64,000 nt of DNA from Marsupella aquatica. Its lineage: Eukaryota > Plantae > Marchantiophyta. A model generated the notes under the pieces. It saw nothing but the letters and a program-made list of their open reading frames with translations, had not been told where the DNA came from and searched no databases. The translations under genes and the position numbers were made by a program. Where the stretch lies: NCBI GenBank assembly GCA_973895155.1, contig OZ316897.1, positions 21,613,455 through 21,677,454 on the forward strand. The letters are read 5' to 3'. Numbering within the stretch: position 1 is the first letter of the stretch; each line of letters starts with the position of its first letter. Of the stretch, positions 3,427 to 38,682 are shown piece by piece.

Positions 3427-3904
3427 CCTGGAATCTCAAAGTCTGTCCGCCCTCTAGCGAATTTCCTACAAGTATGGCTGTGACAGAATGAACTCGACCT
3501 CCCTCCGGTTTCTCTGACTGAAGCTCTTCCCCTGGTCCCAAGTTGAACTCGAGAAACTCCGACCTCACTCACTACTGAACGAATGAGAGACTGCAAACGA
3601 ATTGATGCTAGTCCCAATTTCTGACTTGTGTTATCGCCCAGTTCCAACTTGAAGAATGAATTCTCTCGTGATACACAAGGGAGGACTGACCGGCAAAAGT
3701 AGCATCCGTCGGTCCCATCCGTCGGTGTAACAAATCACACCACACTAACTCCTCTTTCTCACAAAGATTTCAGAAACATGTTGTAGCGTCTCACCCCACT
3801 CTCACTTCCTCTTTCTGTACAATCAGTGTGCCTGTTCGACAGTCCGCTCGCTTCCAATTGCGCCCTCCCAGTCCTGACAGTGAAATCTTCCGTGACAGAG
3901 TGAG

Positions 3905-11250: not shown

Positions 11251-12993
11251 ATGGATTTGTCTGTTAACCTTCTCGTCCATTTTAGAAAACAAAGAAGGAC
11301 AGAAGAAATCTGTGTAGGCTTTGAGTGCCAAATGCCCTCGAAGGGTTTCAATTGTATGTGGCACATGCCAAAACAGGTAGGAGTAAATTCTCTGTTGTGG
11401 TTCACTTGCAGCCTTATGTCCATTAGCAAAAATCCATTCCAAATAACGGCAAGCCAGCAATCCAGGATACACATGTCAACCATGGCAAGCTATGGTGCAG
11501 ACAAGGTCCAGGCAACCTCCGGTGGGCGGTGGCAAACAAGTGAACAGTTGCAAACTATGGGGGACGATGCAAATACCATGGCAGTATCAACTAAATGAAC
11601 TTGGACCTCATGCATACAATAGTTGCCCTGGAAGGAGAAGTATGTTTGAGAAGTTGCTCTGTTGGCACTTCCCTAGCTACTGGAGCATTTCTATTCTGAT
11701 TTTTGTGATGAAGCTGCACAGAAAAGGAAAGGTGGTTTTCCGTTATAACAGGTTTGAGATCTGCTTAATCTCTCCGCATTTAGGCTCCAAACGCTGCAAT
11801 ACAGAGCATACCTCTCGGACTGACTCCGCGACCCCGTGTTCAATAGCACTCTAAATAATAAATCTGCTGGTTCCGTTCAATTTTCAGGTTTCTTCAATCA
11901 TCTTAGATCTTACATGTTTTAACTTTCCCCAACACTTACAGTATCGTTTTCTGATCCCGGAAGTATTATCTTCAGGAGACTTTAACACAGGCCCAACCCA
12001 CACTTAGGACTGAGGGACATATAAGTCACGGTCAAATACAAAACTTACTCAACATGAAAGGACAGTGTAGTTTTTGGCAGACTGAATTCTCAATTAAACT
12101 TATCAAAGATATTCGGGTAGATAATCTTTTGCTAAAGAGAAGAAGTGGCTCTTCAGCTTGGGACAGAACTTGAAAATTGCATCCAAGTTTTTTCGTGAGG
12201 TTCAAATTGGACAAGCTCAAGTTTCGTCCAATTACCAGTCCCTACGTGCATAGCACAGGGTTAATTCTTACAGGGTAAGATTGTACGTAACAAGAAGTAT
12301 GGTCAGGAACTTACTCTTCAAATTTCTAGCGCCACAAAGTATATGTGATTTCGGATATCCGAAATATATGTGATTTCGTATTCTACTCTTGCTCATAAAT
12401 TCCTGGTAGCGTTGTTGGGATGTTAGAGTGCAAACCTTCCAGATAGTCAAATGTAAATACAGATACGAAGAAAATTGAATTTTTTTTTTTCGATTTTTGA
12501 TTTTATTCTTAGAATGTCAGAGCAAGAATGGATAGTTAAGATTAGATTTTGTTCATCATTTCGGTATCATTGTCGGAAGCCGAAGCAGTCATAAAGACTG
12601 TAGATTGCACACAAGAGAATAGTTAAAAGCTTTTACATTATAAAATTAGATTACATAAGTTTTCCAACTAGTCGAGTAGCTCAAGATAATAATGTACGAA
12701 TGCTGCGTGAACGCAGTCGAGTTTCCATTTGGAAACTTCTAGAGTTACCAAGAATTTCAGTCTTAAAGTCTTATCTGTACACTTGTCAATTACAATTCGT
12801 AACTGATGTAACGATTACCCCTCTTGTAGATTCTAAGACTCTACAATAAATTACAATACTCATCTTAAGAAAATCTTATCTTCCTGAATCGAACCAAATC
12901 AAATAGGAGGTCAATTCAGGGACAGTAGATTGCGCATGTACGTTACAACAATATGCACTAGCATATAGCTTGGCTTCCCACGTCTCCACAGAT

Positions 12994-13710
12994 TTAAAAC
13001 CAGCCGAACCCGGGAGTGTGAGTGTACTGCTCAATGAGCACCAAAGACAGGAATGCAAGCATGGCAAGACGCCCATTCCACCTCTCGGCCTTAGCTGTGA
13101 ACGGCCCAAAGCTCCTTGCGTCCGTGGACTCGCCGTTGAAGAATGGAATCAGCGACACGAAGGTGATGATCTGGACAATGGCGATATAGTACACGAGCCC
13201 GGTCCCCTCCTTGTAGAGCTGGTCGAACACCGTCAACCCGCTCATCCTCTCAGCGATGAAGGACCACACCATGCCAACCATTGCCAGACGTCCGTTCACA
13301 GTCTCTGGCAGAGCACCATCGAATGCGAAGATGCTAGCCAAATCTCGGTCGCCCGTCTCGGGCCTTCTTTCGATTTCGGGGCGGGGGTAGAGGGTGCTGC
13401 TCGTGTCAGGCTTGACTCCGAACACAGACTTCTTCTCGGACTCGTTCGTCTCCTGATTACGAAGGATCTCGTCCTTCGTGATCTCCTTCTTCGTCGCCTT
13501 GTCAACACCCTTCCTCACTTCCGCCACCTTCTCCCCAACATCAGCAGCTCGAACCTGCAGACCTCGGCGGTCACGAACACTCAAACTTGGGACCGCGTAG
13601 CCATACCCCAAACCCTTGCTCGAGACTCGAGCTCCTGGACCCGGTAGCCTCGCCAGACCTCCCAGCATTACTGAGCTCGACGACATTGCTACAACCACAG
13701 ATGATGCCAT
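12994..13710 (-). CDS. ELIP: Early light-induced protein (ELIP, LHC superfamily), chloroplast-targeted
   Basis: 238 aa, intronless; Ser/Ala-rich transit peptide; two LHC motifs, PETVNGRLAMVG and AERWNGRLAMLAF. Confidence 0.92.
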   Translation of the reverse strand: MASSVVVAMSSSSVMLGGLARLPGPGARVSSKGLGYGYAVPSLSVRDRRGLQVRAADVGEKVAEVRKGVDKATKKEITKDEILRNQETNESEKKSVFGVKPDTSSTLYPRPEIERRPETGDRDLASIFAFDGALPETVNGRLAMVGMVWSFIAERMSGLTVFDQLYKEGTGLVYYIAIVQIITFVSLIPFFNGESTDARSFGPFTAKAERWNGRLAMLAFLSLVLIEQYTHTPGFGWF

Positions 13711-16700
13711 TTTCTTTCTCTACACAGACAGACAGCGAAACTTACAGAAATTCGTTCTAGAGCCCAACGAGATTGAGAACGAATTGAGAGTTGATCAGGG
13801 GAGAGGAAGATCGCGCAAATAATTGGAATTCTAGATACGTAGAGAGAAAGGGTTCGAGAGTGGATTCGTATCGAGCTCAGGGCGAGGACGTGAATTTATG
13901 GAGACGGAGCAGACCGAACGAGAGGTGGGAAGAACGCCATTTTGCATGGCAGCAAATCTAGACGGTGAAAGTGCGTCTCCCCGAAACGTGTCTTGGGCCT
14001 AAGGTCCGGCAAATTGCCGAATTCCACGACAGGACGTGCAATTACATGCGGCAGGTAAAAATCCTTTGACGTTCTTTCGGGAAAAAGCAGGAAAATGAAA
14101 ATACGTTTGACTGGTTCTGACGGAATGGCTTGACCGTTCATCGCAGAGATGGGCGGTTCAGATGGAGCGTGGGCAGTTGCCCTCTAGTTTCTGGTCAAGC
14201 CTTTTCTTGTCCATCGGGACCATGATAGGCCAGATGAACGGCCCAGATGTTGATTTTGGAAATGATTTGTGATAGGTGAAAATACTTTTACGTGATAGGT
14301 GAAAATACTTCGGAGGTGGGGGAGAGCATGTTACTTTGCAGGTGTCGAAGTTCTTTCCGGTTCACGTGGAAGCAAGGTTATATGACACTTACCCCAATAA
14401 GGCACCAAAGATCTCTTGAAATCAAAATTCAAGCCTCACGTGGTGACAAGTAGACTATTGTACATGGTATTCAAACGTTGAATTTTGGTGGGACCATCCT
14501 TCTTTGGATGCAGAACCCATTGGTTGAGGATATGTTGTTATGGTTCCATGCTTGAGATTGTTGCCTCCCCCCTTCCCATGTGGGGTGCCCCTCACTTGGA
14601 ATGGTTGTATTCTTGCAATAAATATCTTGGGCTCGAGTTCTGGGAAAAGGGCTCTAAGGTCTTCATTCTATATATGACAATGGAAAAAAAAAGGTGTCCA
14701 CAGGGAAGACAAGATCCCAAAGACATGAGACCCAATACAGGGGAGAAAACATGGGAAAAACCCCACAAAGGCCAAAGAGCCAAAGGCCCAATAGTCCAGC
14801 AAGACACAGCTGACAACTAAAATCTAAATCTAAAATGTATCATTGCAATGAATACCTGGATGAATACAAGTCAGTTATTCAAGGGGGGAACCTATGACAT
14901 TGTGGATTGATGGCACTGTGGAGTGAGCAGTCCCATGACTTAGTTGTAACATATTTGTACATCCTTGCCCTAATTTTGGTGTCAAACTCCATAAGTTCAT
15001 TTTTGACTCTACTTAGAAAGACATGCACTTATCAGTAAATGCAAATTGATGGGCACTTACTGATTAGGGCATGCAATTTCTTTAGACCAACATGCATGAA
15101 ATTGGTCTAATAAACTATTTTGCACTGATAAAGTTGTTTAGAAAAATGATTAATTCCAGCAGTTAGAAAGGTTGAAAACAACACAAAATTAGTGTAAAAT
15201 AAAAGGGAATAACATGATGCCTTGTCGTGCCCCAAAAAAACATTTTTAGTCAGTCGCAGGCCCTTTGGGCACTCTCACCCCCGGTCTCGCCTTCTTTCTA
15301 GTAAGCCATTTTTAGAACTTGACTTATCCAGATTTTGCAATGATGGAGTTTCACTTAGAGAGAGCCAAATGTACTATAAGGAATGTTCTTCACAATCCAC
15401 CACGTACGAGCAATAGTTCATACCCGCACCATCAGTAGTTCACACCCTCTATCACAAAAGAACATTAGATTGCAGATCACCTTAAACAATGTGCTGATTC
15501 AATCTATGCTTACGATCTGGACAATGAATATATAGAGGTGCTGTAGAAAAATCCATGATACAGTGATATCCCTCACCCTGTCCGAGAATAATACTACGGT
15601 AGAATGTTTCAGAGCGTTGTTAGCTAGAATACCACTCAAAATGAAGGCATTATCTCAAGTTTTCAATTGAGCCCAGACTAATTAGGGACCCCCATGGGAA
15701 GTTCCTTCCAAATTCTTGGATGCACGTGCAACCACATGGCATGATTTGCCACAAAGTAACAAAAACTGTTAGTTATGCAAGAAGAACTAAATCTGACTAT
15801 TCATGTTTGAGGCAAGGCAAACAAAAAACTGTTAGACCTGTAACTGTAAAAACAATGGAAAACTGAAAAGTGACATTTCAAGTAAACAAAGAAAAGGGTA
15901 AAATAGGGGTAAATTTCTTTGTTTAATGACTTGTGATTGATATATCAGTGTTTTCTGCTAATAAATCTGTCTCAGTTTTCTATTTAATTGCACATTTTTA
16001 GACATGCTTTTAAGAAATGACAAGTAGAAAGAAACTCTTCAACTACTCTAAAATTTATCAAGGTACATAAGAAACAGAAGAAACTTTTCAATTTCTCTAA
16101 CATTTACCAAGGTAACTTAAGAAACACTTTGGCTACTATGGATAGAGGAGTTACAAGCAAAGGTAAGAAACACCATAACTACTATGGGTAGAGAAATACC
16201 AAGGGACTATAAGACCTTTCAAGGACTATCATGGACAAAGTCTATAATATTTTGCATGAACTATATATATGGAATGCTACATGTATTGTATAGACATAGA
16301 GGTACTAAGTGAAACATTTTGCACGAAGAATTACCTTATGCATTACCATGAATGTACTCAGAATTGTCTTTAATGAAATTGTTCTAACAACCTTTAAAAT
16401 TCACTTTATATAGTATCCTCCATCTTTGTCTTTTCATCTATCTAAATATTCCAATGTGCAACTCTTTATGGCTCCTCGGGATTTTGATATATGGAGGCCT
16501 CCCCATCACATGCAATGTTTTTAGCCCAGTTTTTAGGCATTGAACCCCTAAAATATAAGATTAAAAAAAATATTTTAACCCCTATATAGTTGAAATATTC
16601 CCAAAATTGGATTAAAATGACCTTAATGTTCTTATAAGTCTCAAAAGTGGATGTAAAGGGCTCTATTTTTCTTCTAAAAAAATTCTAAAGTATTCCTTTA

Positions 16701-17474: not shown

Positions 17475-17852
<378 letters not shown>

Positions 17853-20800
17853 TGAATATTTGTCAATCCCAGCCAGATGCAAATTACAGGCTGCTTTCCT
17901 TACGCAGATGCAGAGATCTCTTCACCAATAAGGTCAGGAAATCACCTAGCTAACAATAATATCCACTCACCAACACAAAACTTCAGTGCCAACAAGGAGC
18001 CAAAAAGGATGGGTAATAAGCCCAAACTAAAAGAACTTTTGCTCCAAAAGCGCAAAAAGCTCAAAAATGCCCAAAAATGAACCTAAAAAATATCCCTTTC
18101 TCTGCAAAATCTTCATGGATGGAACAAATGCCCAAAATATGTTATCATTTTGAGCCATTCAAAACATAAAATGGACCATAATAAATTATTAATCTTCGTA
18201 TGATCTATTTTCAATCTTAACAATTTGCACTTGCACATGTTCAAGAGATCATTTGTCTAGTTTATCCTTAAATATCATCTTAAAGTTGATTGGAATCAAA
18301 AATATCTAAAACACTTTCAAATATATACTAAAAATTTCGAATGAGTCTTGTAATGAATTGTTTGTCTTTAATCTATCTCACACAAACCAATTACACTATT
18401 ATTATTTTCAAAGTGTAACCCTCCCTTAGAAATTATTCATGAATTCAAGAGTTAGTCATTTTAATATTTTTGAATCTCAACAAATTTAAGTAGCAATAGT
18501 TACTCCAACTCTCTCATTCCCAAATCTCTAATGTTCACATAAGTTTTAGTGGATTGGAATACTTATTTGCATTCACTTAGAAAAAAACTTCATTCTTAAT
18601 TTTTAATTAGAACCTTGCATAGTAAAATACCAAAGTTTTCCTAGCATTTATAATACTCTTTGTCTTTATTGGAGTTGATGTTTTCTTGTACTTTATTCCA
18701 AAGTAATCATTCATTACTCTCTTTGTCTTTACTTGAGTTTGTGTTCTTTGTCAAATTCTTCATTCATAACTCTTTTTGTCTTATATAATTGAATCATTTT
18801 TTGTTCCTTTTTTTGTCATTTTCTTTGTCTTGAGTAACCTTTCTTTTAATTATTTTCTTTATGTTTGTATGCAATTTTTCTCTCTTTTTAAGATTCCCAT
18901 ACTTGATGCCAGATTCACTTCATGAATTCATGAAAAAGAATCTTGGATCAAGATTAAAGAATCTTGAAAACAGGGTTCATGAATTCATGAAGCTTTTGGA
19001 TGCACAAGCTTCATGAATACACTAAGCTTAGGTTTTTAAAAGGTGAAGGGAAAAGTTGGTTAACAACAATCCATGATGGAAGATGAGTGAGCTATGATAG
19101 GCACATTGCAATGGGCGAGTTGCGACCAGCTGCAATGGACAAAATGACAACATATAACCCGTAAAGGGTACAAGATAGGCAATTAGCGATTAAACATAGG
19201 TTGCCAAGGGCAATTGAGTGTTGATGTGTGATGGGTAAAGGCTTCTGATCTCTGATGTTGTTAGTGACTTTGTTCATAAAGAGTATATTTTCTTGTAACA
19301 TTTAATTTGTTGGTGATCTTTGAGCCCAAACTCCAATGTTGAGACTTATATTGAGGAGTTAAATTTGGAAATATTAATTATGAAAAAACTTGTGTCTAAA
19401 GCATTGTGTTAATTATGGGGTGAAAATCCAAGGTCAGGAAATATTAAATATATGATGATTTTTTGTGTTGTTTTTTATGACATTTTGGAAAATCAGAAAA
19501 TTTTGAAAAATAGAATTAAGGCCTTGGACCCATCCTTTAAGGCTTCTTGTTTGCCTTGAACATGATCAATAAGCTGGAATAAACATTCCTAGAGAAATTT
19601 AACTGAAGAAGAAATCCTTGAGCAAGTTTGTCTTATCATTCAATAGATATTAATGCTTGGCATAGCAATGTAAGAGAGCGATAACTTGCCAGTTATATGT
19701 ACCCAGCTCTATGCAGCCACTTAAGGGTATCACATACTTTGGCATTAATGTCAATTCAACGTGCCTTCGATCCTGAAGAAATCTACTTTACTTTGGTCCC
19801 ATTTGTTTTCTACTATGAGTTTATTGCAATTTTGGTCGACAACAAAAAGAAGGCACTCGTATTTGGTAAGAGGTTTCCCAGTTTTTTTTGGCTGGTTCAT
19901 TGTTGATCTTTGCTTTGAAAGTGTAGAGATATTAATACCTCATTTTGCTTTCCACTCTAATATTTGGTAATGTCTCAAAGCCTTGACTTCTTGATTGAGC
20001 CATTCGCGATGACATTAGACTAGACTGTCAACTAAAGTCCGGCCGCGCCGGGGTTTCCTGCGGATCATTTCTCTAGAGATGTAGGTTAAAGAATCAAGAA
20101 TTCAAATTCAGAGTCACAGAATTTATGATGTATTATTTGTCTTCAATTGGATAGAACGCCAAATAGGGCACCAATCAGGAGCACTCAATTCATAGACCGT
20201 TCCTATCTTCAATTTTGTTTTCCAGATCTCGCTGGCCATGGCCTGTGTCGATGCAGGGATGATTGTTGACAGAACTAAGACCGATTAATTACGCAGCTTG
20301 TGTGGTGCTCACAGATGCTTTGGCACAGGATCATGGGGCCTCTCAAGTTGACATTTCCGATGCAGTAGTTACGGACTATGCAGTGGCAGATCCACTGGTG
20401 CAGAGCACAACATCAGCCTCAATACTTCCATCCGGTTTGAGGGGTGACTCTCATGCATCTTATCAACTAAGCTAACATAGACCTACCAAACATAAAAAAC
20501 CTGCTTGGTAACAGTTTCAAGTGCAAAGACATTTCTATTGTTTATTATTTACTTTAATATTTTGAGAATGATTATATATTTTATGTTTTTTGGTATGTTT
20601 TCAATAACTACAAAAGACAAATGAAACGGTTACTGGGAGCAGTTTTACCTCAATCAATGCGTCGGGCATTGGGATTTGCATCTGAGTTTTTTTTACTTTC
20701 TTTTTCTTGCCATGGTGTCCTGATTTTTACTAAAACATTGCTCCAAACAAGAACACTGTAGTTAGTTTCGGGGGTTTGTATGGTGCGAGGAAACAAGAGA

Positions 20801-21099
20801 TATTGACAACGAGGTTAATGGTTGCTAGCGAGGTAAAACTAATGGTCAGAGTGGCAAATTGGGAGTATAGTGAGACTTCTACAACAGAAATGAACCTTTT
20901 TCCAGAATGGGATCATGCAATTTTATGTCCAGCGAGGTCGCTAGCCTTCAATCATTGACAAACCATATGAATAAACACAAGCTAGTAAAACACCAGGCGG
21001 ATATGAAAAGGCATAGTCAATGAATCAACTCAGATTTCAAACCCGTTTCAAAGTCATATTTCCAAAAAGTGTATTGCCTCCAATACTTTGTCAAAACTG

Positions 21100-24000
21100 A
21101 CAGTAAGTGAGTAAACTGTCCAGGGACATCGTTCTATTCCCTCAGAAAATCATAAGTCACTTGAATGACTTTCATCCGACTCTATATCATTCCTACTACT
21201 AGTATTGCTCTGGTCACTACTGAAATCCCGATCAGTTGACTCAGCAGACTCATCAACATATTGCTTAACAAGGCATGCCTCATCGTCAACAAAAGGCAAG
21301 CAATATAAATTTTTTCTGGCGCCATGATGTGACCTACGACCTTTGCCTTCCCAGGAGATTACAAAAGCATCATCCGACTGAATTGCCGAGTTCTCTGCAT
21401 AGCAAGGCAGAGTAAACGTCTTCTGAGGAGAAACAATGCAAGATTCTTCAATCTTCCTTTGAAGCCAAAATCTCTCTTCAAAAAACCAGTCGACACGAGA
21501 ATCTCTGAAATCATGAAAACAATAAGAGCACTATCAATGAAATATCCAATCGAAAGACAATAGCAAGCTTCACCAGCCAATTGATTAAAGCAAAGGGATC
21601 TGGTATAAGCGAGAGGACCAGTACATTACTCCAGGTCAAATTCATATCATCCCCATCTTTTGCATCAGGAACATTAGGAGCCCCATCTTTGTTTTTTCCA
21701 CTCTTTGATCCTGCAAGAGAAAATTCATCCTCTGAATCGAAGTCCTCCAATGTTTCAGTGAGGTCTTCAATTTTCTTGTGTCTCTCAAGAACACTCTTCA
21801 ATGCCTTCTCTGCAGCACCATGGAGAACATCCCTATCCTCGACCCCAACAATGAACCTCCCGGAGAGTTCTCCAGCTGAAAATGAACTGCTGTCTCCAAT
21901 ATTCCAATCAAGCACAATGTCTCTAGGCTTTGTGAGAAGCTCCATCACAGCCTGCATGAATCCAACAGACAACCGAGAGGAACCAGAAAAAGCTAACTTT
22001 GCCTTGGTATCCCTTTTTGGATAACAAAGACTCAACATCGTCTTATGTGATGCATCTTCAGACGTTGCCAAAGGGACATACTTCGGGTCTTTTGGGATCT
22101 TCCCATTGACTTCCACTCGACAAAAGACATCCAGGCTTAAGTTGCAAACTTGGAAAAGTACAAAAAAACGTCAATTAATGAATCCAGGAAGGCCAGCGAG
22201 ATCGCTGTCACAAAAAACATACTAAACCATGCATATTTTACACAAATCTCACCTCAATGTTCATGTCTGGCATCCACATTGGGGACCCCAATAAAACATG
22301 GTACTTCCGAAGGTGTTTAAATTTGTTCCTCTGTTCAACAGCTCAGCAAAAATTTGCTTTGTGTGGTTAAATTCTCCACTATGGAGAACGGCCACATACC
22401 CATCATCGGCCAACATGGGCCTCATCACTCCACACAAATAGTAAGGGAGCTTCTCAACCCAGACATTCCATGGGGGAACGTCCACAATCATCGGTAACAC
22501 GAGGCCTCAGCCCAGTCGGAAGAGCTATGAACCCCAGATGGGCACCGGTCCCAGTGTAAGGCTTCCCGTTGATTTTTAAGGGATTCGGGTGTTCGGAAGA
22601 ACTTGAAATCTCCGAAAGCCATTGATCCCCCTCCCCCATCCAAGAAGGTCGAACCTTCTTCATACTTATCGAGTCAGCCGTCAAGCGCAAATTACTCTTT
22701 GCAAGGAAATGTCGCCTTCCATCCAACTGGAGTCCATAGAGTCCCGTGACACCCTCTCGGATTGAAATTTCTTCCTCATCAGAATCTGACAACACTTGAA
22801 CCTTTCGCTTCTTCTTCAACTTGTGGGACCCTGACTTATCACCTCCCGGCTTAGTCACAATTTCAAAATCGGGAGACTCAGGCTCAACAAGATCCTCCTG
22901 GCAACCATTAGTCACAGTCTGAACACTCTCGGAACCCAAAGACTTCCTCCTTTCTAGATACAAAAAAGCAACCTAAGAGCCTCAGGATATGTCATAAACT
23001 TAATCAGGATAGCAGCTTGGGAGAGGTAATAGAAGTAAGCTTCGGAGAGATAAGAATATACTTACTTTTCTTTCTAGAAATCATAGAGCCATCTTTTGAT
23101 ACCTCCTTGGCAACATCCCTCTTCAATTTCCGAGGGCAGCTCCTATCAACAGTTGGTGCCACCCCGAGGCATGCCTGCTCCATCGACACACGACCAGCAA
23201 TTTCTACTTCCGGGTTGCACAATTTAGATTCACTAGTAAAGAATTCTGGGACCAAGCCCTGATTGATCTTTTGAAGCGCAGCTTTCTCTGTCACATCAAA
23301 TGTCAGTGACCAATTCTCCGAATCTAAATACCAGGGACAATGCAGCACCTCCCATTCACTTATCTTCCGCAAGGGTTCAATGTCCTCAATAGGGTACATC
23401 AAGTACTCCCTAAACTTCTCACAACCGGAATCATCTCTTGCATATTGCGCCCATTGAGAGAAACATGTCGGATAACACCACCAAAAAGATCTATTTGCTA
23501 CCTCCCGATCAACAAAAAACCTGTAAACATATCTTTTTGCCCTCCGTAAAAAAGCAGCAATGTCAATCTTCTCCCCAACTTTCGGGTTCCACATGCTCTT
23601 AAAGAACCTTACCTTAACCCACTGCAGGAAATCCTCAAACTCATCATCAATTTCAACAAGGAGGGATGCCTGACTATTCTCTGGGGAAGAAAGAATTCTA
23701 GATTCAGGGATAGTGAGAATAATCTCATAGATTGCTTCACTTAATAAGCACCTCGCAATGGACTCTACCTGTTCCCAGGTTGCCCATCGATGCAACCAGA
23801 GCTTGGTCTCACTATCCAAAAATTGAGATGGGTGGAAATATTGTTTACGCAACTCTGATCTGCACTGTGCTTTGAGAAGAGCGCAACGGAGTTGTGGACT
23901 CAGAGAAGTTACCCCGGTGAAAAGCCTTGCACGATCAAGGCCACACGAAACATTCCCTCTCCCCTTATCATCCGTCCGCTGAGCTTCCTTCCTTTCTTTC

Positions 24001-25076
24001 GCACAATAATTGTGCATCTCAACACATTTCTTGAAGAAATCCCCAAAGTTTGGATTTAGAAGCGGGGCAAACTTTGGAACGTTGACATTCCAGTCAGAGA
24101 GTTGCTCCTTCATCATATCTCGAATTGCAATGTCCTTTGCAACTTTCGACAGAGGTTCACCAAGTTCCTCCTTTAGTGCAAACTTCTTGAGTAAGTCAGC
24201 AGTTTGCGAAGCTATGTTTGCCGCTGAAAGAATATAAATACATGCCTCTAAGGTCATCTGCTTTGAATACCACGACGGCTTCTTCACATTTTGCATCTTC
24301 TGCTAATTAAAATAACTTGAAATTCTCTGGATCAATTGAATCTTTGTAAAGTGAGAGGTCTGTGTGCAAAATCTTCTGGACCCGATCAGCTTCCAGCACC
24401 CACGAATTTTTGACGTGGCATTGTGTCAACCTGACAATGAGGACAAAATTCAGAAAACAACAAGAACAAATCATGCACAAAAAATGGAGGAAAAAGATCA
24501 AATGTGTCAAAGATCTTCTCACCGGTTGAGAGCATGCATTGCATATTCAATATGCACGAAAGTATCCTTCTCTCCTTTGAATATCTTTGAGACAACTCGA
24601 GGATGATATTTGACATTGTGAGGATTCTCAGCAGCAAGCAGGTTCCACGAATGGAGATGGTGATTGCCATCAAAAACACAAAACATTTTATCCTTGGGCA
24701 CAGCAAAATCAGGATGCGAATCACACTCCCTCTCAAAAACTTCACTCTACGCCAACCACATTGGATCCCAGCCCTGTCTGATTGTGTCGTTGAGAAACTG
24801 CACGTTGCCATTCTCATTTGTCATTTGCACATAAAAATGAGGCGCGTCCTCAATGTACCCTTGAGCCCGGAACTCATTCTTCAAAGTCTCAATTGCATTT
24901 GAATCTGTCTGAAGAGACCTCACAAGCTGTATGTTCCGCATTCGACACAATGGAATTTGAGGGGGAACCAGAGGATACCCAAATTCGTCCGGCCCAAACT
25001 AGTAAAGATGGCGGTTAATGACAACTGAGAAAGGCTCGGACTTGGCAGAATCCATCGAAGGTGGCACAATATCCAT
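21100..25076 (-). pseudogene. Multi-exon gene: ParB/Sulfiredoxin-like N-terminal domain, helical middle region, N6/N4 DNA-methyltransferase-like C-terminal domain; disrupted
   Basis: N-term QLVRSL...FCVFDGNHHL; C-term HLGFIALPTG...MLADDGYVAV...MELLTKPRDIVLDWNIGDSSSFSAGELSGRFIVGVED; in-frame stops (~24998, ~24747) and frameshifts; introns ~24431-24522 and ~22135-22252. Confidence 0.6.
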
Positions 25077-28000
25077 AGGATCAACAAGCTTTCGCCTCCT
25101 TGGAGTCTTCAACCCCGAAGCAAGTGCTTTGTGGCTCGTAGAACTCCTGGTCTCTCGACGTTGAGAGGCAGCTGATTTGAGGCAACGGACGAAATAGACT
25201 CAGGGGATGCAAAAGTTGCCATCGACTGATAAGGAGAGGAGAACCACGTAAACGGAATACAAGGAATTGGTACGGTGATTTGCAAAGGAATCCAAAGTCA
25301 CATGTGTTAGGAATCCTAAGCAAGATATTGGGGGAATCCAAATATCTACAGTGTATCTGACATTGACAGGGAATATCAGTATTTAACACCTTCATGCCAA
25401 AGATCCCGCTGGTGCTAACTAACGTTAACAAAGCATCAGTTAACGTTAAGAATGAGTCTAATTACTGCTTAACAACAACTCGTTCGGATGAAATGTACAT
25501 TTGACTCCAACGGTTCGAGTCAATTACTCTATAGTTGACCAACTTGGGTTGGGTGTCCGTTGAAAATAACTTGGGTTGGGTGTCATACAAAATATGCCGA
25601 TGGATGTAGAAAAGGAAGTTTTTATGAAATTTACTCTTCAAAATGAAGTAAACCCTTCCAACGGTAATATAATTTTGTCGTTAGATGACTGATTAGATGA
25701 CTGATTAGATTATTGATAAGGAAAAATAGGCGTAAACCCTAAACTCCATACTTTGTTTAAGACATGTATTTAGATAGTTTTTTGCCAGCAACATTGCTGG
25801 CCAAATTAGTGTTAATGGGGTAGGTTAAAAGTGATGTCTTGTTTTTTAAATGAGCCCTTAATTCTTTCCTAAATTCTAAAATACTTGACAGAAGTCAAAC
25901 AAACTTAACAATGTTTAATGTGTAAACATAACGTTTTGGAAATATATTTGTTTCGATATCCCTCATTTTAATCCCAAACTCAAATAAAAGTCTACCCTAA
26001 ATTTTGGGTGCATTAGGCTAGCAATATCGCTGGCCTGATTCAGGGTTTCTAAAAGGTTTAATTTATGGGACATCTCCAAATCCTCTCCTCTGTTAATGTC
26101 AATTTGTGAGTGAAAATCATATTATAGAATCACTAAAAATAGAGTTGGTTTAATAATAAAGTCCATTTTAAACACAGAAAACTTTCCTTTAGAAATTATG
26201 TCTAGCGAGGTCACTAGCAAAATCCGTTGTTTAACATGAAGCTCCAAGTTCAATAATCCTCCTAATGTACTCCAAGTTCAGTAAACATTTAGGAACAACC
26301 CAAGATATCCTTGTTGTCAACAAAAAACAGTCAATGTTTTAGACGATTACAAGATATAACTTTGGATTATTATGGAGCCCTTTATGATAGCAAATTTAGG
26401 CCAGCGATATTGCTAGCAATAATTCATTTCTTGAAGGTATTAGAGCCGTTGAAGTTTTGTCGTATATGCAACGTTAAAGTGATGTTCCATTTTATTCTAA
26501 ACTTTAATGTCTTCGTATTATTCTATATATTCATCCACTAGAAGAAACCGAGCTATTCTGAGACCTTCCCTTACATGACTTGTGCGAGACCTTCAGAAAT
26601 AAGTGACTCCAAGGTTTAGGGTGTCATGTTCGTCACACCTTGTTGACTGATTTTTGGTGAAGTTTAGGGGAGTCATGTTTTCAACTATTTGGAAAGTTGC
26701 AAGTACAACTCAATTGAGGCAATTACGTTGAAGTTCAACAAGTGACTCTACAATATAGCATTATGGTTTATAGCACAATATTTGAACCTACCAACCTAAA
26801 CCCTGAGCTATGGGATCCGACCCAATACATTGTTAGTGTAGATATACCTATATAATTAGATTACTCTATTTAAACATGGTTAAGTCATGCATTTTAACCA
26901 TTAGTGAGTTTTCCTTGATTATTCCAGGCCAAGAAAATTGCTCATAAGCACCCATTAATTTAGACACCATGCCATCATGCCCCCATTCAACCGCAAAAAG
27001 GCTTCACTATTGGCCGTGGTTACATATGCAAGGGACGTTAATGTGTATTACCGTGGTTACATATGCAAGGGCAGGTTATTTTTACTTATTGCCATGCCCT
27101 ACAAATTGACCAACATGTACCCCCCTCCACACATCGTTCCATGAACCGGGAATAGTCACAATTTACCTTCATATACTCCCCTCCATGCATGTTACATACC
27201 CAATAACGGCACCCCACACACTATGCTGATGGAATGAGCATAAGAACTTGTGACAACTCGTGTGACAGTGCTTACCTTAATCAAGCAAGGATCTGACGGT
27301 TGTAAACTTAATGAAAGGATGATCTGACGGTTGAAAACAAATATGCGCACATTAAAGCAGCTTTAGGCTTTAATGTGTTCCTTCACGGCATTGCCATTCT
27401 GCCTTGGATTCCTTTGGTTTCGCGGACGAGGAGCCAATGCTGCATTCTTTGCAAGGGAAAAGAGGGGGCACTTTGTCACTAAGGCAAAAGCTGCATCGAC
27501 AAATTGCAATCCCGACTGCAAAGTGAGTAGTAGGACGCGAGAAGAGCGAGTTTAGGGTGCTGCATCGACGAAACAGAATGTATTGGAAGGGGACAAGAGC
27601 AATTCTGTGACGCATCGACGATAGGCACTACGGAAGGCACTGTGAAGAGTTTGCACTACGGGAGGCACTCATTCCGACAGAAACTGCCCATCGAATGTGC
27701 TTGCTTGGGCTGAGGTTTAGGCTGCACTAGTAGGAAGAGAATCAGCAAAGCGACGAGGCTTTGGTGTGTCGCCAAGAACAACATTCGGAGCAGAGCAGAG
27801 CAGGGCAGCATTTGCGACATTTGCTGAGTTCTCATTTCGTTGCAGCTGCTATTTGTTGTTGTTGAAGATGGCCGCGGTTTCAGCTACGATTTGCGGTGCT
27901 CCTCTCACTTCAAAGCAGACAGATTCCGGGACCTAGGAAGTGGCCATCGCGAGCGCTCTCACAGAGGTCGAGGACTATCTGGTGCCGTTCCCCCCTTTTT

Positions 28001-30186
28001 TCCATTTCAGCTGGGTTTTCGGTGTTCATATCTCCCGTAGTAGAAGTGGTCATTGAAGAGAAGCTTTTATGAATTACAAAAGTCACTGAGGCATCGGTCA
28101 CTGAGGCATCGGCCTTTGAGTTGCAGTCACTGATGAGCTGTTTGAGTTGCGATGTCTAAAAATGATAGTGGCCCTGACTCCTGCTTATTGACTCCTGCAA
28201 GTTATTTAAGCTGAACTGATCTCAACGATAGAGATCAAGCGTGCTTACTTGAGCTGAACTGTCGTTGAACAGCGACGGGGCGCTGCTAGCAAGAGCTTGG
28301 GTTGCGACTTGCAACCAGGAGCCAAGACAAGTTGCTGCTTTACAACTGGACCGAGAGCTGGTCCTGCAACCTAGGAGGGAGCTACGATCATGCAAAGCTG
28401 AGTCAATGCATGCATGAGGTAATCACGTGTTGCGCCCACATTCTTGCTCCAATCATGTGTCTATTCACTAAAGTCTTCAGAATAAAGTCGGGGCTTATAC
28501 TAGTGCCACATGATTGTAGCGTAACCCCTCTCTCACTCTCACAACATATCACGGCAGAAGTGGGCTTTCACAAAATTTGCAAGAATTGACTATATTAAGT
28601 GGAAGGAAGAGACCCTTTGTCCATGCTGCAGTTGCATCCACATAGACTCTAACTGTGTCAGGATTGGATCCATAATTTGTTTGGCTATCTAGGCTGTGCA
28701 TCCACTGCTCTTTGCTGGATTTGGTGAGGCGGGAGGTTCAGAACGTGCTATGGACAAGGGGCTGAGTGACTTTTGTCCAACTGCGCTGAGCTGACTCGGT
28801 ATGCTAAAGGTTTGATACATCCAGAAGAGGTCAGTATGATCCCTAACCAATGTGAATTGAATATACGGAATGGGATATTTCCTCTAACTTTCAATGTTGC
28901 ATTGTATGACAACCACCATGGGCCATTCTGAAGTATTCAGTGTCTGAGTAATTCCTGGCTTCTAGCTGTGATGTCCGCATGAGCTAGCCCAAGTGAGGTC
29001 CAACTTGGAGCCTTATTAACATTGTTGTTGTGGGGCCGATATAGGAGGTTCCGTCTAGGACTTGCTGTACTGAAGCGAGCTCCTGCTCTGAGGTGCAACG
29101 TGAAGCTGCGCAATTTACATCTAGCTCAGCTCATGTATTGAAGTGAGCTCCTGCTTGGAGGTTCAGAGACAAGGTTTTGTGGAGGTAGGTGACTTCTGTC
29201 CAGCTGCGCTCAACTGAGTGAGTATCCTGAACCTGGAATCCTGAGTGAAGATAGGCCAGCAATGTTGCTAACTTTTTTTTTGCATACTATTATGGTTCCC
29301 AAAGAGGTCTGCTAATGAATGACACATTTGAATTGGCTCAACAAGGAATAGAAGAAGCCATTGCCTTGACATAATAGGTAATAATGGCTCCGATGGAATC
29401 TGTGTTGACAACTTGTGTTTGTTCTAATTGTTTATATCTCAAGAGGGTCGTCAATGAAGCTGACAGTCAGAGAGTCAAAGCTAACTACAAGCTAGCAAAT
29501 AGGTTGAATGCTCCCAAGTTGAGTCAGACAAAAGTTACTAAAACTAGGCCTCTCTCAAATCTGGAAAGTGAAATTCAGCCTGAGACACGCAGCTGAAGGC
29601 CACAAGGATAACTATTTGGCCAGGCTGTCCCTCATTGAAGTCCAAAGTCCTCTTCAGATTGTCTGAACTCCTGTCTGAACTCTTGAACTGGATGAACTCC
29701 TGTCTGAACTCCTGAATTGGATGAAGTCCTGCCTGAATCTGAAGTTCAGATTGTCAATCTCAAATGGCAAGTTCTGAACTCCTGTCTATTGAGCCTAATT
29801 ATTTGTTTATTGTTGTAGTAACATGCATGGCCAATTGGTTTGAATTGAAATGGTGGTTTGAATTTTGTTAAGTGTTTTGAAATTTGCATTCACACTGTCT
29901 AACTAATTTTCTTGTGTGATGCAGATATCTTTGCTATTGACAATCTTGAAAAATCATTTGATCACAGAAGTTTTCAGAACAAACACGGCAGAATTCAGGC
30001 TGAGGATTGGACATTGAGGCTCAAGACATTGAGGTAATAAACTGGTTGTGGTCCGGGTGACAATGTTATCAAATGATGCTTCTTCAGGGGAACTGCCCAT
30101 GTGTAGTTTGTTTTGCCATTTGAAGGGGGTCGTTCACTATATGCAATAGTAATAACTTTGTACATTTGTCTGTTTAATGTTCAGTC

Positions 30187-30867
30187 TTGGTAATGACTAG
30201 GGAGAAGAGGAAAGCCGTAAAAAATGCCACTGAAACAAAAAAGCGGAAACATAATGAGGCAATTGAGCCACATAGCTTGAAGATTGAACGCTGGTCAGAC
30301 ATTGAGAAGCGTCAGTGTAGTCCCCAGCTGTGTGCGATATGTGATTTTCATGGAGATCTGGTCGTGTGTGATGGGTCTTGCCATCATCATTTTCACTATG
30401 TCTGTAGAATTGGTGACACTGTAGGCAGGTGTCCTGCAGTGGTTATTGCACCAGGCAAGGATGGTGAACCCTGGTTTTGTGTAGATTGCAAGAATAAGAT
30501 ACACAAGTGTTTCAAGTGTGGCGTGGTCTCTCCAGCGGTCAGACAGTGCCCTCAGCCATATTGTGTTCGTTTTTATTGTCATGAGTGCTTGCCGCTTGAT
30601 GTGGAGTCTTGCCCCATGCATGCATGTACAGCATGCAAGCAAGATCACAAAGACCCTCATATGGCAAAGGCAATTCAATGCTTGAGATGTCCCACCACCT
30701 GGCATGAGGGTTGCTTAAGAGAGAGTCAACGTCATGGTTTTGCACCAGACAGAGAACCCTGGCTGCACACTGCGCACGGACAGCAGCGGTGGATGATTTA
30801 CTGCCCGAGGCATCCCATTGACCCTGTACTTGGCACACCTACCCATGATCATATCTCCTGGCTTTGA
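30187..30867 (+). CDS. Cys/His-rich PHD-finger cluster protein (NSD/EDM2-like triple PHD), CACTA cargo; probably has upstream exons
   Basis: CAICDFHGDLVVCDGSCHHHFHYVC..WFCVDC..HKCFKC..CPQPYCVRFYCHEC..CPMHACTAC..QCLRCPTTWHEGC..IYCPRH; basic NLS-like KKRKH; cag acceptor just upstream. Confidence 0.8.
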   Translation: MVMTREKRKAVKNATETKKRKHNEAIEPHSLKIERWSDIEKRQCSPQLCAICDFHGDLVVCDGSCHHHFHYVCRIGDTVGRCPAVVIAPGKDGEPWFCVDCKNKIHKCFKCGVVSPAVRQCPQPYCVRFYCHECLPLDVESCPMHACTACKQDHKDPHMAKAIQCLRCPTTWHEGCLRESQRHGFAPDREPWLHTAHGQQRWMIYCPRHPIDPVLGTPTHDHISWL

Positions 30868-31181
30868 TGTGGTGGAGTTTATATTTACCATGCGTTCACT
30901 TTAGGGGTTAGCCAAGTTTTGTCTTAGGCAGGATACCTGCACATTTTAAACTAGTCAAGACTCCAAACTTGCCTATTGTATTATGGTTATTCCCACTGTG
31001 TACACGAATATCATGCATGTTTATGGATGTCATGGTGAATGTGAATGTGGCGATACCCAAGTTTGTTCTGTTGTTGTTGCAATCCTTGTATGAATTGCAT
31101 ATTTAGGCATTCTCATGGATCTGCAGGTGATATCAGGGGTGTCCACTTTTTCCTTCACACTGTCAAAAGGCTGCACTGCAC

Positions 31182-32096
31182 ATGGCTACCTCCAGTAGGA
31201 CACTGAAGAGGCTTGCCTCAGACCTTCCTCCTACACTGTTTGCTGGAGTTAGAGCAATTTTTGTCACTCATACTAGGGGGGAGGACACGAATAGATGGGA
31301 GTTCATGAAAAGACAATTGGTTGAGAATGGAGGGATAGTGTTGAAACAAATCAGTAGAGACACCACACACGTCATCGCTGATGATTGGTGTGATGTGATG
31401 CAGAAGTGGTTTTGGAGCACCATCAACTTTTACAGAGAGTCCTATGGTCTTAAGGTTGTTGATGTCTCTTGGATGTATGACTGTCTAGAATATAGCACCC
31501 TTCACGACCCAACAGAGTATGATATATGGTTGAACAAACGGGCCACCAAAGACATTTTGCAGTTCAAAGCACAATATGATGATGCTTCACAGGGAACTAG
31601 GCAAGAGCTCTTAGAGCATCCTATGCCTGTCATAAACCCCCATGTGCGGGTCATGTTTAGGGGGGTTAAGGTCATGTTTGTGGGTGTTGGGATTCCACCG
31701 GGAAGGTTGAGACGTTTCAAGCACAAAATTCTGCACAGGCAGGGTGAGGTGCATGAACGCCTCATAGATTCTACCACTCATGTGGTCACCCTATCCTATT
31801 CCAGACTTTGTCGTATGGTTGGAAAGACTTTAGTTCGGATGATGGTTAGTAGGGGCCTGCAAGTGGTTTCACCTGCTTGGATGAAAGAGTCACTAGATAG
31901 AGGCATTGTACTTGATGAAGCAGCCTTTGATCTGAATGAGGTGTGGCCTCAAAAGCCTAAGTACAAAAGATGTAAGAGCTGGGATGGAGGTGATGAACCA
32001 TTAGTTAATGATGTACTCAGGGACACAACCACAGAGTGGGAAACCACGAGTGATGAGGACGAATACTCTTCTGACACTGGCGAATACAATGATTAG
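31182..32096 (+). CDS. Tandem BRCT-domain protein with acidic tail, CACTA cargo
   Basis: Two repeats, LFAGV..GG.V...DTTHVI..VVDVSWMYDCL and MFRGV..GEVHERL..TTHVV..VVSPAWMKESL; open 304-aa ORF. Confidence 0.85.
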   Translation: MATSSRTLKRLASDLPPTLFAGVRAIFVTHTRGEDTNRWEFMKRQLVENGGIVLKQISRDTTHVIADDWCDVMQKWFWSTINFYRESYGLKVVDVSWMYDCLEYSTLHDPTEYDIWLNKRATKDILQFKAQYDDASQGTRQELLEHPMPVINPHVRVMFRGVKVMFVGVGIPPGRLRRFKHKILHRQGEVHERLIDSTTHVVTLSYSRLCRMVGKTLVRMMVSRGLQVVSPAWMKESLDRGIVLDEAAFDLNEVWPQKPKYKRCKSWDGGDEPLVNDVLRDTTTEWETTSDEDEYSSDTGEYND

Positions 32097-32140
32097 TTTA
32101 TCTGATGAAGAGCCATGACAGTGTCAGTCATTTAGACAAT

Positions 32141-34121
32141 CACTAGTACATATTTAGCTGATTTCCGATGCTCAATTTTTGCAAACAATCGGCATCCGAT
32201 TCTTTTAGAATCGGAAATTCCCATTATCACAAAATGGCAATATGCCATACTCTCGGCTTCAGATATCTTCATTTTCCGATGTAATTAACAACGGAACCTT
32301 TCCGATGCAGTAAAAAACGGATCATATCCGTTACAAACTACATCGGATCCCCTAACAAAAAATTTGATTGATATGTCCGATGTTTTTTGTAACGGAAATG
32401 ATGTGCGTTTCAATATTGATCGGAAAAGTTCCGTAGTTGATAAGAACGGATATTATATCCGATTGTGGTAAAATGGCAAAGTCCGATGTTGAGAGAATGG
32501 GAAAGTCCGATGCTGAGAGAATGGGAAAGTCCGATGCTGGGAGAATGGGAAAGTCCGATGCTAGTAGAATGGGAAAGTCCGATGCTGGGAGAATGAGAAA
32601 TTTTCATTTTGGCAAAACGACAAATTCCTATTGTGTTAGATGGGGCATGTAGTTGCACCGACATACTCTTCCTAGAAAAGAGGATACAATCATTCTTGCA
32701 TGTTTGAATGACTTCATACTTGAGGCAAATGGACTTAATTGAATGTTGTTCTTGCCTCCTTCCAAGACCCCAAAATATTGTTCCCTTTTGGCAATATTTG
32801 CTCAACATGCAAAATCAAAAATTTATCATCTTAAAGGAGATTGCTTGTCCCATGTAGTCTTTGTTGCAAGTCCAACAACAACATAGTTGATGAAAGATGA
32901 GACAATCGGGAGCTGCCCTTGACACCAAGGCTTTGGAAGGACCAAAATATTAATCTTCCATAACTAATAAACTATAATGATCTCATGTCAAGTCGGATGG
33001 AGGAGGGCTTTACTATTCACGAATGATCCCAAATTTCTATTGATTGCTCCAAGGGAATGTAAGAGGGTAATCGTAATTATAGATCACTCGATGCAAACAT
33101 GCAATATCATGATAGAGCAAAACTAGGATTTATTAGTCTAATGCCACACTTTTGTGGCATAATCACTACATTGCCACTCTTTTTCTTGTATTTATCAGTC
33201 TACCACTTGTTTGAGTCATCGGTTAAGAAAAGTAACTCAAGTTAACTACCTAAGATCCGACGTTTGAGATTTCTTTTGGTCTTCCCATTGGACGGTCGTC
33301 GCTTCCCCCACGGTTACATTTTGAACCCTCAGTATAGTTTGCGGAGGGGTGGGTTGGCTAATCCATTTCTCCTCCCCTCCATTTCTCTGTCACCATAGTT
33401 GAGGCGCACTGGCTGCGTCTTTGCTCCACCCTTGCCACTATCGTTGCGTCCTCATTTCCCCGGCCCGGGCTGTGTTGTCGTTGACCCTAGCTGGCTGCCT
33501 CTAGCTTGGCCAGGGCTGCATTGTTGCATGTTGCCTGTCGGCCTCTCCCGACTCTGCCCAGCTTAGGTCCAAATTATGGGTCTTAATAAATTTAGAAGTG
33601 TATAAAATCCCTAAACACTCCAAGTCAAACAATAAAAGTGTTAAGCTTGCATGTACATTGTGAGGGATAAGAACTAGAAAGTTAAGCTCATGTTGGAGGA
33701 ATAGCAATTGGGATGGGTGACCACTTAGTTGAGGAATGAAGAGTTGAAATGTCAAAGGAGGTGGGCACCTCGCTCGTGGTTGCAAAATGAAAGTAAATAT
33801 ACAAAGGAAGAGATGGGTGACCTGAGCACCCCGCGTCCGCTCCAATGTGTATCCCATTTTCATTGTTTTAAACTTTCCCATTCTCCCAGCATCGGACTTT
33901 CCCATTCTCCCAACATCGGACTTTCCCATTCTCTTAGCATCGGACTTTCTCATTCTTTCAGCATCGGACTTTCCGATATAAGTCCGATTGTCGATATCCG
34001 ATACTTTTATCATGGCATGTTACGATGCCGGCGGAATCGGATGTATGGTTTTTTCATATTTTGTTTTACAAAGACGTCCGATGTGGAGAGAATCAGAAAA
34101 AGGAGGTAAAATGTACTAGTG
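32141..34121. mobile_element. Nested non-autonomous CACTA element (1981 bp)
   Basis: TIR CACTAGTACAT / ATGTACTAGTG; TSD AAT on both sides; 24-bp subterminal tandem arrays in inverted orientation. Confidence 0.95.
32468..32597. repeat. 24-bp tandem array (gaatgggaaagtccgatgctggga) x~5; inverted counterpart at ~33873-33976
   Basis: Directly visible; these are subterminal repeats of the nested CACTA. Confidence 0.9.
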
Positions 34122-34599
34122 AATGAATACTTGTTAGTGGTGAACTTGTTTCCTTAAAATTCCATCTGTAATAAAAACATTCATTGTCCTCTCATCATGT
34201 CATTCCACAATCAAATCATCTCTTTGCTTTGGATGCTGTTCAAATTTTGTTCAAATTTTGTTCTGTGTTGTGTGTCGTGTTGGCTTTTCCTTAACCAGGG
34301 ATGTGGCTTTGTCCTCATGTCTACATACAATGTTGCAAGGCCCCTACGGAGACAGTACGTACTGAACGGGTTGTTTACAGAGTTGGGGAGACAGTACCTA
34401 CTGAACGGGGTGTTTACAGAGTTGGGCAAACGTCCTTTGCTATTTGTATTGTTGACAACTTCAACTCAGGTACATGACCAATTCACATGACAACAATGCA
34501 CTTCTTCTTTTGACCATTAGTAGGCTACTTTGTTACCCTTTTCACCCATTGTTCATCACTACAGAGTTTGCAGTCTATTACAATGCACCCTCGTCACCA

Positions 34600-38324: not shown

Positions 38325-38682
38325 GTAACCTGCATTGTTTGCATGGACACAAATAGATTTTGTAATAAATTAATTGTCAAGGAGCAGATGCATGGTCAAG
38401 TAATTGGATTGTGTTTCAGGGTGACCATAGATGACATGTGCTTGTGATCCAATAGGATGGAACAGAGTGACACACATATGTGTGAGTATGAAAGGCAAGC
38501 CATGGAACGTCGAGCATACGTGAATGCCAGAATAGTCGAACTGGAAGCCTCCTTGAAAATGGATGTGGCTGAATTGTAAGGGAACAATTTTCTGCCAAAA
38601 CTTGATGTTAAGTTGGGTGTGACCTGAACATTTGATTGTGGCACTAAAATTGTGATTTGATTCTTGTATTGGTGTATTGCAG

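Follow-up and report, generated by a model that had tools for sequence, protein, structure and literature searches.

Why a liverwort transposon should carry a gene that joins a ParB-like domain to a bacterial-type DNA methyltransferase-like domain, and whether its product writes a mark on DNA or recognizes a site in it, are the questions raised by a 64,000-nucleotide stretch of Marsupella aquatica (GenBank assembly GCA_973895155.1, contig OZ316897.1, positions 21,613,455 to 21,677,454), here called the window and numbered from its first letter. The gene lies in a Mutator-like element (MULE), divergent from the transposase gene, and is referred to below as the accessory gene. By analogy with the transposon protein VANC and the plasmid protein KorB, we favor, at a probability of roughly one half, a product that would bind DNA as an element-specific regulator and whose methyltransferase domain is likely dead.

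An initial annotation had placed the gene at 21100 to 25076 from the peptides QLVR, VFDGNHHL, HLGFIALPTG, MLADDGYVAV, and MELLTKPRDIVLDWNIGDSSSFSAGELSGRFIVGVED, all of which were recovered from the minus strand by six-frame reading. The peptides are spread over different frames and connected by introns and frameshifts, and the start of the gene is probably near 25222 rather than 25076. Exon borders were drawn from GT-AG sites and homology, not RNA, and those of introns 3 and 4 are approximate. The encoded protein runs from a disordered start through the ParB-like domain, a helical middle, and a linker to the methyltransferase-like domain and an acidic tail, as follows.

21150 to 25222, minus strand: accessory gene (pseudogene), about 1,200 aa, five inferred exons
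24523 to 24970, minus strand: predicted ParB/Srx-like domain, with DGNHH (24671 to 24657) where the family has DGNHR; both TAG stops of the gene are in exon 1
23066 to 24430, minus strand: exon 2, conserved all-helical middle region, candidate DNA-recognition part
21790 to 22560, minus strand: predicted beta-class amino-methyltransferase-like domain, with ALPTG (22525 to 22511), PPWN (22476 to 22465), and DWNIGD (21909 to 21892, within MELLTKPRDIVLDWNIGDSSSFSAGELSGRFIVGVED)
21150 to 21497, minus strand: last exon, with the tail pattern LPxYA ... F[VI]DDxA, also present in seven Riccia proteins

The gene is real, but the copy in the window is a pseudogene. Two TAG stops interrupt exon 1 (25001 to 24999 and 24749 to 24747), and at least four frameshifts fall near 25140, 24305, 22500, and 22318. 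Other copies were viewed in four coded DNA runs (X1 to X4; at most four samples from two studies, one run possibly being the window's own source), in which summed contig depth is qualitative only and gives no copy number. In all four runs, a plus-strand G predominates in the depth at 24749, which makes the codon CAG; the stop is therefore private or rare. With every break replaced by X, the reading comes to about 1,211 aa that are colinear with the Riccia sorocarpa protein KAL3677308.1 (E = 3e-66 and 3e-16).

This Riccia protein (P0156; 1,207 aa, intact and full length) aligns along 25136 to 21790 at 27–29% identity, and the full domain order is common to the window plant and Riccia at about 26–29% identity, with relatives in ferns too. 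A search of 1.84 billion cluster representatives with exon 1 gave 193 relatives at E ≤ 0.001, the best 150 of which were used for motif counts; a species name was obtained for 16 of 30 relatives looked up (11 R. sorocarpa, five Adiantum). Exon 2 is 39–42% identical to P0001–P0003; one weak search had revealed no longer proteins containing it, and the Riccia relatives turned up later. All 26 matches to the P0156 methyltransferase domain are R. sorocarpa paralogues, located on scaffolds of eight different lengths, and in a one-sequence search, a profile built from the Riccia methyltransferase domains matched the C-terminal third of the window gene (E = 1e-21). The tail pattern was seen in Riccia P0032, P0163, P0166, P0167, P0177, P0182, and P0183; as a guess, the acidic tail motif, 3' of the methyltransferase-like domain, might recruit a host chromatin factor.

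That the gene belongs to a Mutator-like element, as the initial annotation had supposed, is established by the element's termini, its target-site duplication, and an empty site for a later insertion.

20761 to 20769, plus strand: left 9-bp target-site duplication GTTAGTTTC, identical to the 9-mer at 47832 to 47840
20770 to 20799, plus strand: left terminus, a degenerate inverted repeat beginning with GGG, core TGCGAGGAAACA
26536 to 43333, plus strand: nested CACTA element of 16,798 bp, with an ATC target duplication and PHD, BRCT, Tnp2, and TnpA-like genes
43338 to 47061, plus strand: Mutator-like transposase (pseudogene), DDE domain at 44578 to 45351, start uncertain
47802 to 47831, minus strand: right terminus of the Mutator-like element
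47832 to 47840, plus strand: right 9-bp target-site duplication GTTAGTTTC

The termini were sought as 9–11-bp duplications beside inverted ends, with 200 shuffles and 293 other region pairs as controls. Twenty of 30 bases match between 20770 to 20799 and the reverse complement of 47802 to 47831, compared with 17/30 for the best shuffle and 19/30 for the best other pair. One control pair (12300 to 16400 versus 57414 to 60148) combined a 9-bp duplication with 19/30 inverted matches, which reflects chance or another element. Long terminal inverted repeats were sought and not found, the ends being degenerate only; a hairpin-forming inverted repeat at 47766 to 47803, just inside the right terminus, has no counterpart at the left end. 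The element occupies 20770 to 47831 including the nested CACTA and measures 10,261 bp without it, whereupon the accessory gene and the transposase stand divergently about 1.3 kb apart. Its 9-bp target duplication (8–11 bp being the length described for MULEs; PMC6446971), its short degenerate ends, and its MULE-type DDE transposase with a SWIM-like end are those of a MULE.

The transposase frames are broken; its reading comprises an N-terminal Cys/His domain and a SWIM-like end of the form CxC...CxH. In the ESM Atlas, PF10551 (MULE) is found on some members of the clusters that it matches at 0.93, and the ten best matches that have a family all share one clan. Pfam gave no direct match, and sequence and profile searches of the Protein Data Bank (PDB) returned nothing significant. 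Being MULE-like in the ESM Atlas with no direct Pfam match, the transposase is therefore placed in a divergent clade. Its Cys/His pattern ends in HDHP, which we take to resemble GCM; a GCM or WRKY-GCM1 identity for this zinc domain found no match in Pfam or PDB.

The CACTA element was delimited by a repeat search, which placed inverted ends at 26536 and 43333 with ATC on both flanks, and its genes were named by Pfam. It inserted into the Mutator-like element later and is not part of it; the accessory gene as CACTA cargo was rejected, its position being outside the CACTA ends. Contigs that end at 26537 run on with TGATGTTT in X1 (two contigs), TGATGTTTGTGTT in X2 (two), and TGATGTTTGTG in X4 (one), all resembling TGATGTTTGTGAC at window position 43339 over 8–13 letters. 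The empty site appears in three of the four runs, with none for X3 among the contigs listed, and the overlap is short yet exactly at the predicted place. Other contigs join the CACTA end to different flanks, indicating many other insertion sites. Ahead of the Tnp2 and TnpA-like genes, the CACTA carries open reading frames (ORFs) for an NSD-type PHD finger (30178 to 30867) and tandem BRCT domains (31131 to 32096). A 24-bp repeat forms two arrays of opposite orientation in it (32434 to 32650 and 33848 to 33991), which include the deepest contig-depth bins and are probably a further nested non-autonomous element.

The contigs over 19692 to 20839 are unique in X1, a many-contig zone starts there, and many diverged sister contigs cover the accessory gene. 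The observed/expected CpG ratio is 0.55–0.56 in the accessory gene and transposase versus 0.71–0.93 in three host genes, a depletion that points to past methylation of the element by the host as 5-methylcytosine (5mC).

For the N-terminal domain, the ParB/Srx-like fold proposed earlier is supported by structure matches of a modeled Riccia relative, P0158, with a predicted local distance difference test score (pLDDT) mostly above 80 over residues 11–170. Among 48,161 structure representatives, the five chains that reached Z ≥ 5 were KorB (7.7), PadC (7.0), pNOB8 ParB-N (6.0), sulfiredoxin (5.8), and SerK (5.1), matched within residues 5–183; KorB aligned over 95 residues with an rmsd of 2.6 and 10% identity, and Z under 8 is a common range according to the tool's own warning. 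We predict a ParB fold because all five of these chains are ParB/Srx-type and the family bears a GxxR motif. ParB, Noc, and sulfiredoxin chains also led the Foldseek results (top ParB probability 0.75, E = 0.35, none at E ≤ 0.001), and the ESM Atlas gave a ParB_N cluster at 0.92. Neither the window nor 42 other proteins had a ParB match in Pfam, the sub-threshold matches being DUF1015 in 4 of 75 proteins and DndB in 2 of 75; PDB sequence and profile searches found nothing significant for either the ParB-like or the methyltransferase-like domain.

The motif [DE]GNHR was present in 98 of the 150 relatives, other variants in 17, and no motif was found in 35. Across the relatives, the Arg of G-N-H-R (81%) and a downstream Asn (86%) are conserved. 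The family possesses the GxxR phosphate motif defined as Box II in ParB (10.1101/2025.10.10.680097), from which the window copy departs with GNHH. A CGT-to-CAT change had been offered as the cause; the family agrees with it, Arg following GNH in 98 of 115 relatives with the motif, but the position is not among the 40 variant rows listed for sister copies. An Arg and an Asn are reported to be required for KorB to bind CTP and close its clamp (10.1101/2024.02.16.579611), and we infer that the GNHR Arg and the downstream Asn correspond to them. The nucleotide chosen by a ParB-like domain is described as unpredictable from sequence (10.1101/2025.10.10.680097).

Behind this domain, the middle region is all-helical in the model, with weak helical structure matches only (best Z under 5). 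The nearest named ESM Atlas clusters of P0156 residues 165–345 are fungal DUF3723 (PF12520) at 0.96 and 0.95, PF12520 being found on 31% and 47% of their members; unnamed cnidarian proteins are also among the nearest clusters. PF12520 had no match among the 25 families listed for 75 aligned proteins. The literature searched contained no paper with both DUF3723 and ParB; subscription journals and bioRxiv supplements may differ.

The C-terminal domain conforms to the proposed beta-class N6/N4-methyltransferase fold and motif order in Foldseek, in the VIA structure search, in PF01555, and in phage alignments. With a model of the relative P0157, the top ten Foldseek rows were M1.HpyAVI and CcrM (E = 1e-4 to 6e-4), and the best VIA match was CcrM (Z 6.7, rmsd 5.2, 164 aligned). 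Window exon 4 matched the NCBIfam DNA methyltransferase PRK13699 at E = 9e-4, far below the family cut-off, and PF01555 only at E = 0.069; relatives matched PF01555 at E = 9e-6 to 5e-5, over the S-adenosylmethionine (SAM)-binding half only and with 24–26 bits against a cut-off of 26.7. A tblastn search of phages with this domain gave only E ≥ 0.01, 19 of the 20 best rows being annotated as DNA methyltransferase; the ParB domain had no match in phages, and viral contigs gave none. Three phage methyltransferases align over both motifs, motif IV preceding motif I; their motif IV reads DLPY or DIPY, and in the SAM-binding half, the Lys, Gly-Asp, Asp, Gly, and Arg are common to them and the accessory family. 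The beta-class enzymes M1.HpyAVI, CcrM, M.MboIIA, and M.RsrI resemble the accessory domain in fold and in having motif IV before motif I, whereas they keep (D/N/S)PP(Y/F/W) and the accessory family is without that aromatic.

Alignment of homologues confirmed that ALPT occupies motif IV; VPPW (22479 to 22468) was rejected for this place, as homologues align it to a conserved PxWN. In 24 of 32 methyltransferase-bearing relatives, motif IV reads D-[LMF]-[PS]-[STI], with Asp first in 24/24 and an aromatic fourth in 0/24, and the catalytic form (D/N/S)PP(Y/F/W) is absent from all 24 as well as from the window copy. Motif I is DFAGGWGA in 13 of 21 Riccia proteins, with close variants in the other eight, and is degenerate (DWNIGD) in the window copy. 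All but one of the proteins counted are Riccia paralogues, so these counts are not independent. The initial annotation had considered motifs IV and I divergent, which they are, but decay is not a sufficient account, the loss of the aromatic being family-wide (24/24); beyond that loss, the window copy or its lineage has also departed from the family in its Ala for Asp at motif IV and its DWNIGD at motif I. A Tyr-to-Gly substitution at the aromatic position of motif IV is reported to abolish the activity of HP0593 (PMC3036652). With the aromatic lost throughout the family, a pseudo-enzyme is therefore likelier than a writer of N6-methyladenine (6mA) or N4-methylcytosine (4mC), and Riccia members probably keep SAM binding. 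The earlier comparison with Marchantia DN4MT1 and bdelloid N4CMT holds for fold and motif order but is otherwise loose, since both are active host enzymes with (T)SPPY (PMC8885841, 10.1101/2021.02.12.428880); N4CMT is described there as marking transposons for silencing, whereas the accessory gene is instead carried by a transposon.

A palindrome, GCYAGCRA-nn-TYGCTRGC (8-2-8), has nine matches with at most two mismatches in the window, against 0.10 expected, a figure inflated by the pattern having been derived from the same sites. Eight of the nine lie in non-coding DNA of the Mutator-like element, including one in an intron of each gene.

20928 to 20945, no strand: copy 1, 3' of the accessory gene
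22192 to 22209, no strand: copy 2, intron 3 of the accessory gene
25784 to 26417, no strand: copies 3–6 (at 25784, 26017, 26201, and 26400), upstream region shared by the divergent genes
45401 to 45418, no strand: copy 7, inferred transposase intron
47249 to 47266, no strand: copy 8, 3' of the transposase

With a matrix built from the six left-arm palindromes alone, the two sites on the transposase side came 3rd and 7th in the 64 kb, the sites scoring 20.6–28.2 bits compared with 14.4 for the best outside 20770 to 47831. A sister contig compared afterwards has a palindrome that differs at three positions, each of them degenerate, so that the consensus is kept. Together, the left-arm matrix and this variant reduce the circularity of the pattern. 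The degenerate positions appear to be those that cytosine deamination would change. None of the palindromes lies within 150 bp of either element end. A metagenome scan found four loci of 1.2–1.8 kb, too short for linkage, and none had the palindrome.

Known systems offer several comparisons. VANC21 of VANDAL21 (Hiun) in Arabidopsis is likewise an accessory gene of a Mutator-like element with degenerate ends and a family motif in non-coding DNA and introns (PMC5735166, PMC6446971). The VANC targets are described as 9-bp non-palindromic motifs in tandem arrays, whereas the window element has eight single, dispersed palindromes (PMC5735166); anti-silencing has been shown for VANC and would be an extrapolation for the accessory protein (PMC5735166, PMC6446971). 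None of the searches made returned a match of VANC to ParB or a methyltransferase. KorB of plasmid RK2 (PDB 8qa8) belongs to the ParB family, regulates the mobile element that encodes it, and loads at the palindromic OB (10.1101/2024.02.16.579611); it differs as a bacterial CTPase repressor with a known helix-turn-helix, a KorA partner, and no methyltransferase domain, the accessory family having the motif GNHR. Closest in layout is Sola1-1_Ec32 of Ectocarpus, which has a 1,104-aa ParB-like and N4C/N6A-methyltransferase gene opposite its transposase, the proposed role of the protein being to bind and modify the element that carries it (PMC12477816). The accessory protein is similar in size (about 1,100–1,200 aa), in possessing both domains, and in being encoded on the strand opposite the transposase within a large DNA transposon, but its element is Mutator-like and its host a land plant, and the likeness is one of described layout rather than sequence comparison. 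The portions of PMC12477816 at hand give no palindromes and no catalytic motif for Sola1-1_Ec32.

Taken with VANC and KorB, these data lead us to suggest that in intact copies a dimer of the accessory protein likely docks on the palindromes across the element's non-coding DNA. The two-fold sites and the ParB fold together suggest dimer loading at the sites, as KorB loads at its palindromic operator, and the palindrome would be read as a dimer site by the helical region that follows the ParB-like domain. Nucleotide binding at GNHR could then close a clamp that spreads from the palindromes, as in KorB, while the methyltransferase-like domain would retain its SAM pocket and grip DNA or partners, writing no mark. 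The outcome would be expression favored under host silencing, as with VANC, and not repression.

Several points weigh against this proposal. Which way regulation would run is guessed from analogy, and the palindromes are dispersed and of inverted-repeat form, unlike the dense same-direction arrays of VANC; the ninth palindrome (29255 to 29272) sits inside the CACTA element without surrounding Mutator sequence. The fold searches gave modest scores (for ParB, Foldseek E ≥ 0.35 and Z under 8), the methyltransferase-domain model of P0157 is poor (mean pLDDT 45), the weak matches in the middle region include no identified helix-turn-helix, and both the folds and the motif counts were obtained with proteins of Riccia and ferns at about 26–29% identity to the window copy. 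The empty-site overlap of 8–13 letters is under the 31-letter bridging threshold. In addition, the transposase too contains a candidate domain for DNA binding, and a Mutator transposase is reported to be able to activate its own copies (10.64898/2026.08.24.746577). Finally, the motif IV Asp (24/24) and the motif I Asp and Gly-Gly (21/21) are residues that an active enzyme also needs.

These last residues bear on an alternative in which the accessory proteins are active amino-methyltransferases with an odd motif IV, D-L/M-P-S/T-G, and the ParB part loads at the palindromes to let them write 6mA or 4mC on the element. The Trp of the following PxWN may perhaps replace the lost aromatic, most of the 21 relatives have D-F-x-G-G-W-G, and the phage DLPY and DIPY, whose SAM-half residues are shared, show that the second position of motif IV need not be Pro; the role proposed for the Ectocarpus protein is the same (PMC12477816). 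We nevertheless regard an active enzyme as unlikely, given that the aromatic is missing in all 24 relatives and that such a loss kills or weakens tested enzymes, that the window copy has Ala for Asp together with DWNIGD, and that PF01555 reaches only the SAM-binding half at a score below its cut-off. In a different account, the palindromes are sites of the transposase zinc domain, and the accessory protein contributes to transposition differently, for instance as a DNA-bridging or DNA-coating factor; MURB, which is required for MuDR integration, is a parallel. MULE transposases are described as carrying WRKY-GCM1-type DNA-binding domains and may self-regulate via internal sites (PMC1702500, 10.64898/2026.08.24.746577), and the accessory protein has yielded no DNA-recognition fold, its helical region matching at Z under 5. 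This account too seems doubtful to us, as the palindromes are two-fold symmetric, extend across introns and the intergenic region, and avoid the terminal 150 bp, in the manner of ParB-family operators, among them the palindromic OB of KorB.

The dead window copy and the several Riccia gene models that are fragments could also be reconciled with neutral captured cargo of the Pack-MULE type, or with a decayed host gene that has no role in the element. This is very improbable, considering that the window plant and Riccia keep the full domain order at such low identity, that ferns have relatives as well, that the element's palindrome lies within an accessory-gene intron, and that the named matches (Riccia, Adiantum) include no single-copy host source gene. 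Over the active enzyme, the transposase sites, and the neutral cargo, we therefore favor a regulator with a dead methyltransferase domain. A more far-reaching idea, which we consider unlikely, is that Mutator elements of liverworts, ferns, and related plants use a phage-derived, ParB/parS-like self-recognition system, in which a nucleotide-gated clamp would load at private palindromes, slide along the element, and shield it from 5mC or write 6mA/4mC through D-L-P-S/T, DUF3723, an unexplained core cargo of Starships, being the same module in a pan-eukaryotic form of counter-silencing.

The novelty claimed in the initial annotation was overstated, as a transposon accessory gene with ParB and N6/N4-methyltransferase domains is already in print, where similar green and red algal transposon proteins are also cited (PMC12477816). 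ParB-N6N4 fusions are described as common in bacteria and phages (10.1101/2025.10.10.680097), and Iyer et al. 2016 (PMC4738411) traced one haptophyte clade to ParB-terminase loci of phages and credited land plants with few N6A methyltransferases. In the literature searched, no title or abstract opening described such a gene in land plants; subscription journals and the supplements of bioRxiv and PMC12477816 may differ. What is new within that literature is a land-plant family whose intact members can be named, a Mutator element with its limits defined, a motif IV change common to the whole family, and a feature-level closeness to DUF3723. The accessory gene is a land-plant, Mutator-borne variant of the algal ParB-methyltransferase helper, with an enzyme half predicted to be dead, contrary to the printed proposal of self-methylation (PMC12477816). 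Escape of transposons from host methylation has been worked out in few cases, chiefly VANC, and the present case supplies a fully delimited element, a candidate site, and an intact gene in the liverwort R. sorocarpa. DUF3723 is described as conserved cargo of fungal Starships (10.1101/2021.12.13.472469), transposon cargo likewise and so far a similarity of features only; the tie, if true, would provide the first fold hypothesis for that Starship family.

In the Adiantum capillus-veneris protein KAI5065344.1 (P0107), the ParB-like domain is accompanied at the C-terminus by a NIF/FCP1 phosphatase domain (E = 2e-12), which may reflect a fusion in the gene model or a different pairing of cargo; a fusion to the CACTA TnpA was considered and is unsupported, the CACTA and MULE genes of the window having matched no stored protein. 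Elsewhere in the window are a PR-1-like gene, an MCM helicase P-loop domain fragment in a repeated region (17475 to 17855, E = 4e-13), and an ELIP-like gene (12997 to 13719), the 5' part of which has an inverted copy (3928 to 4437 versus 13643 to 14100) upstream of an AIG1-type GTPase ORF (2023 to 3435).

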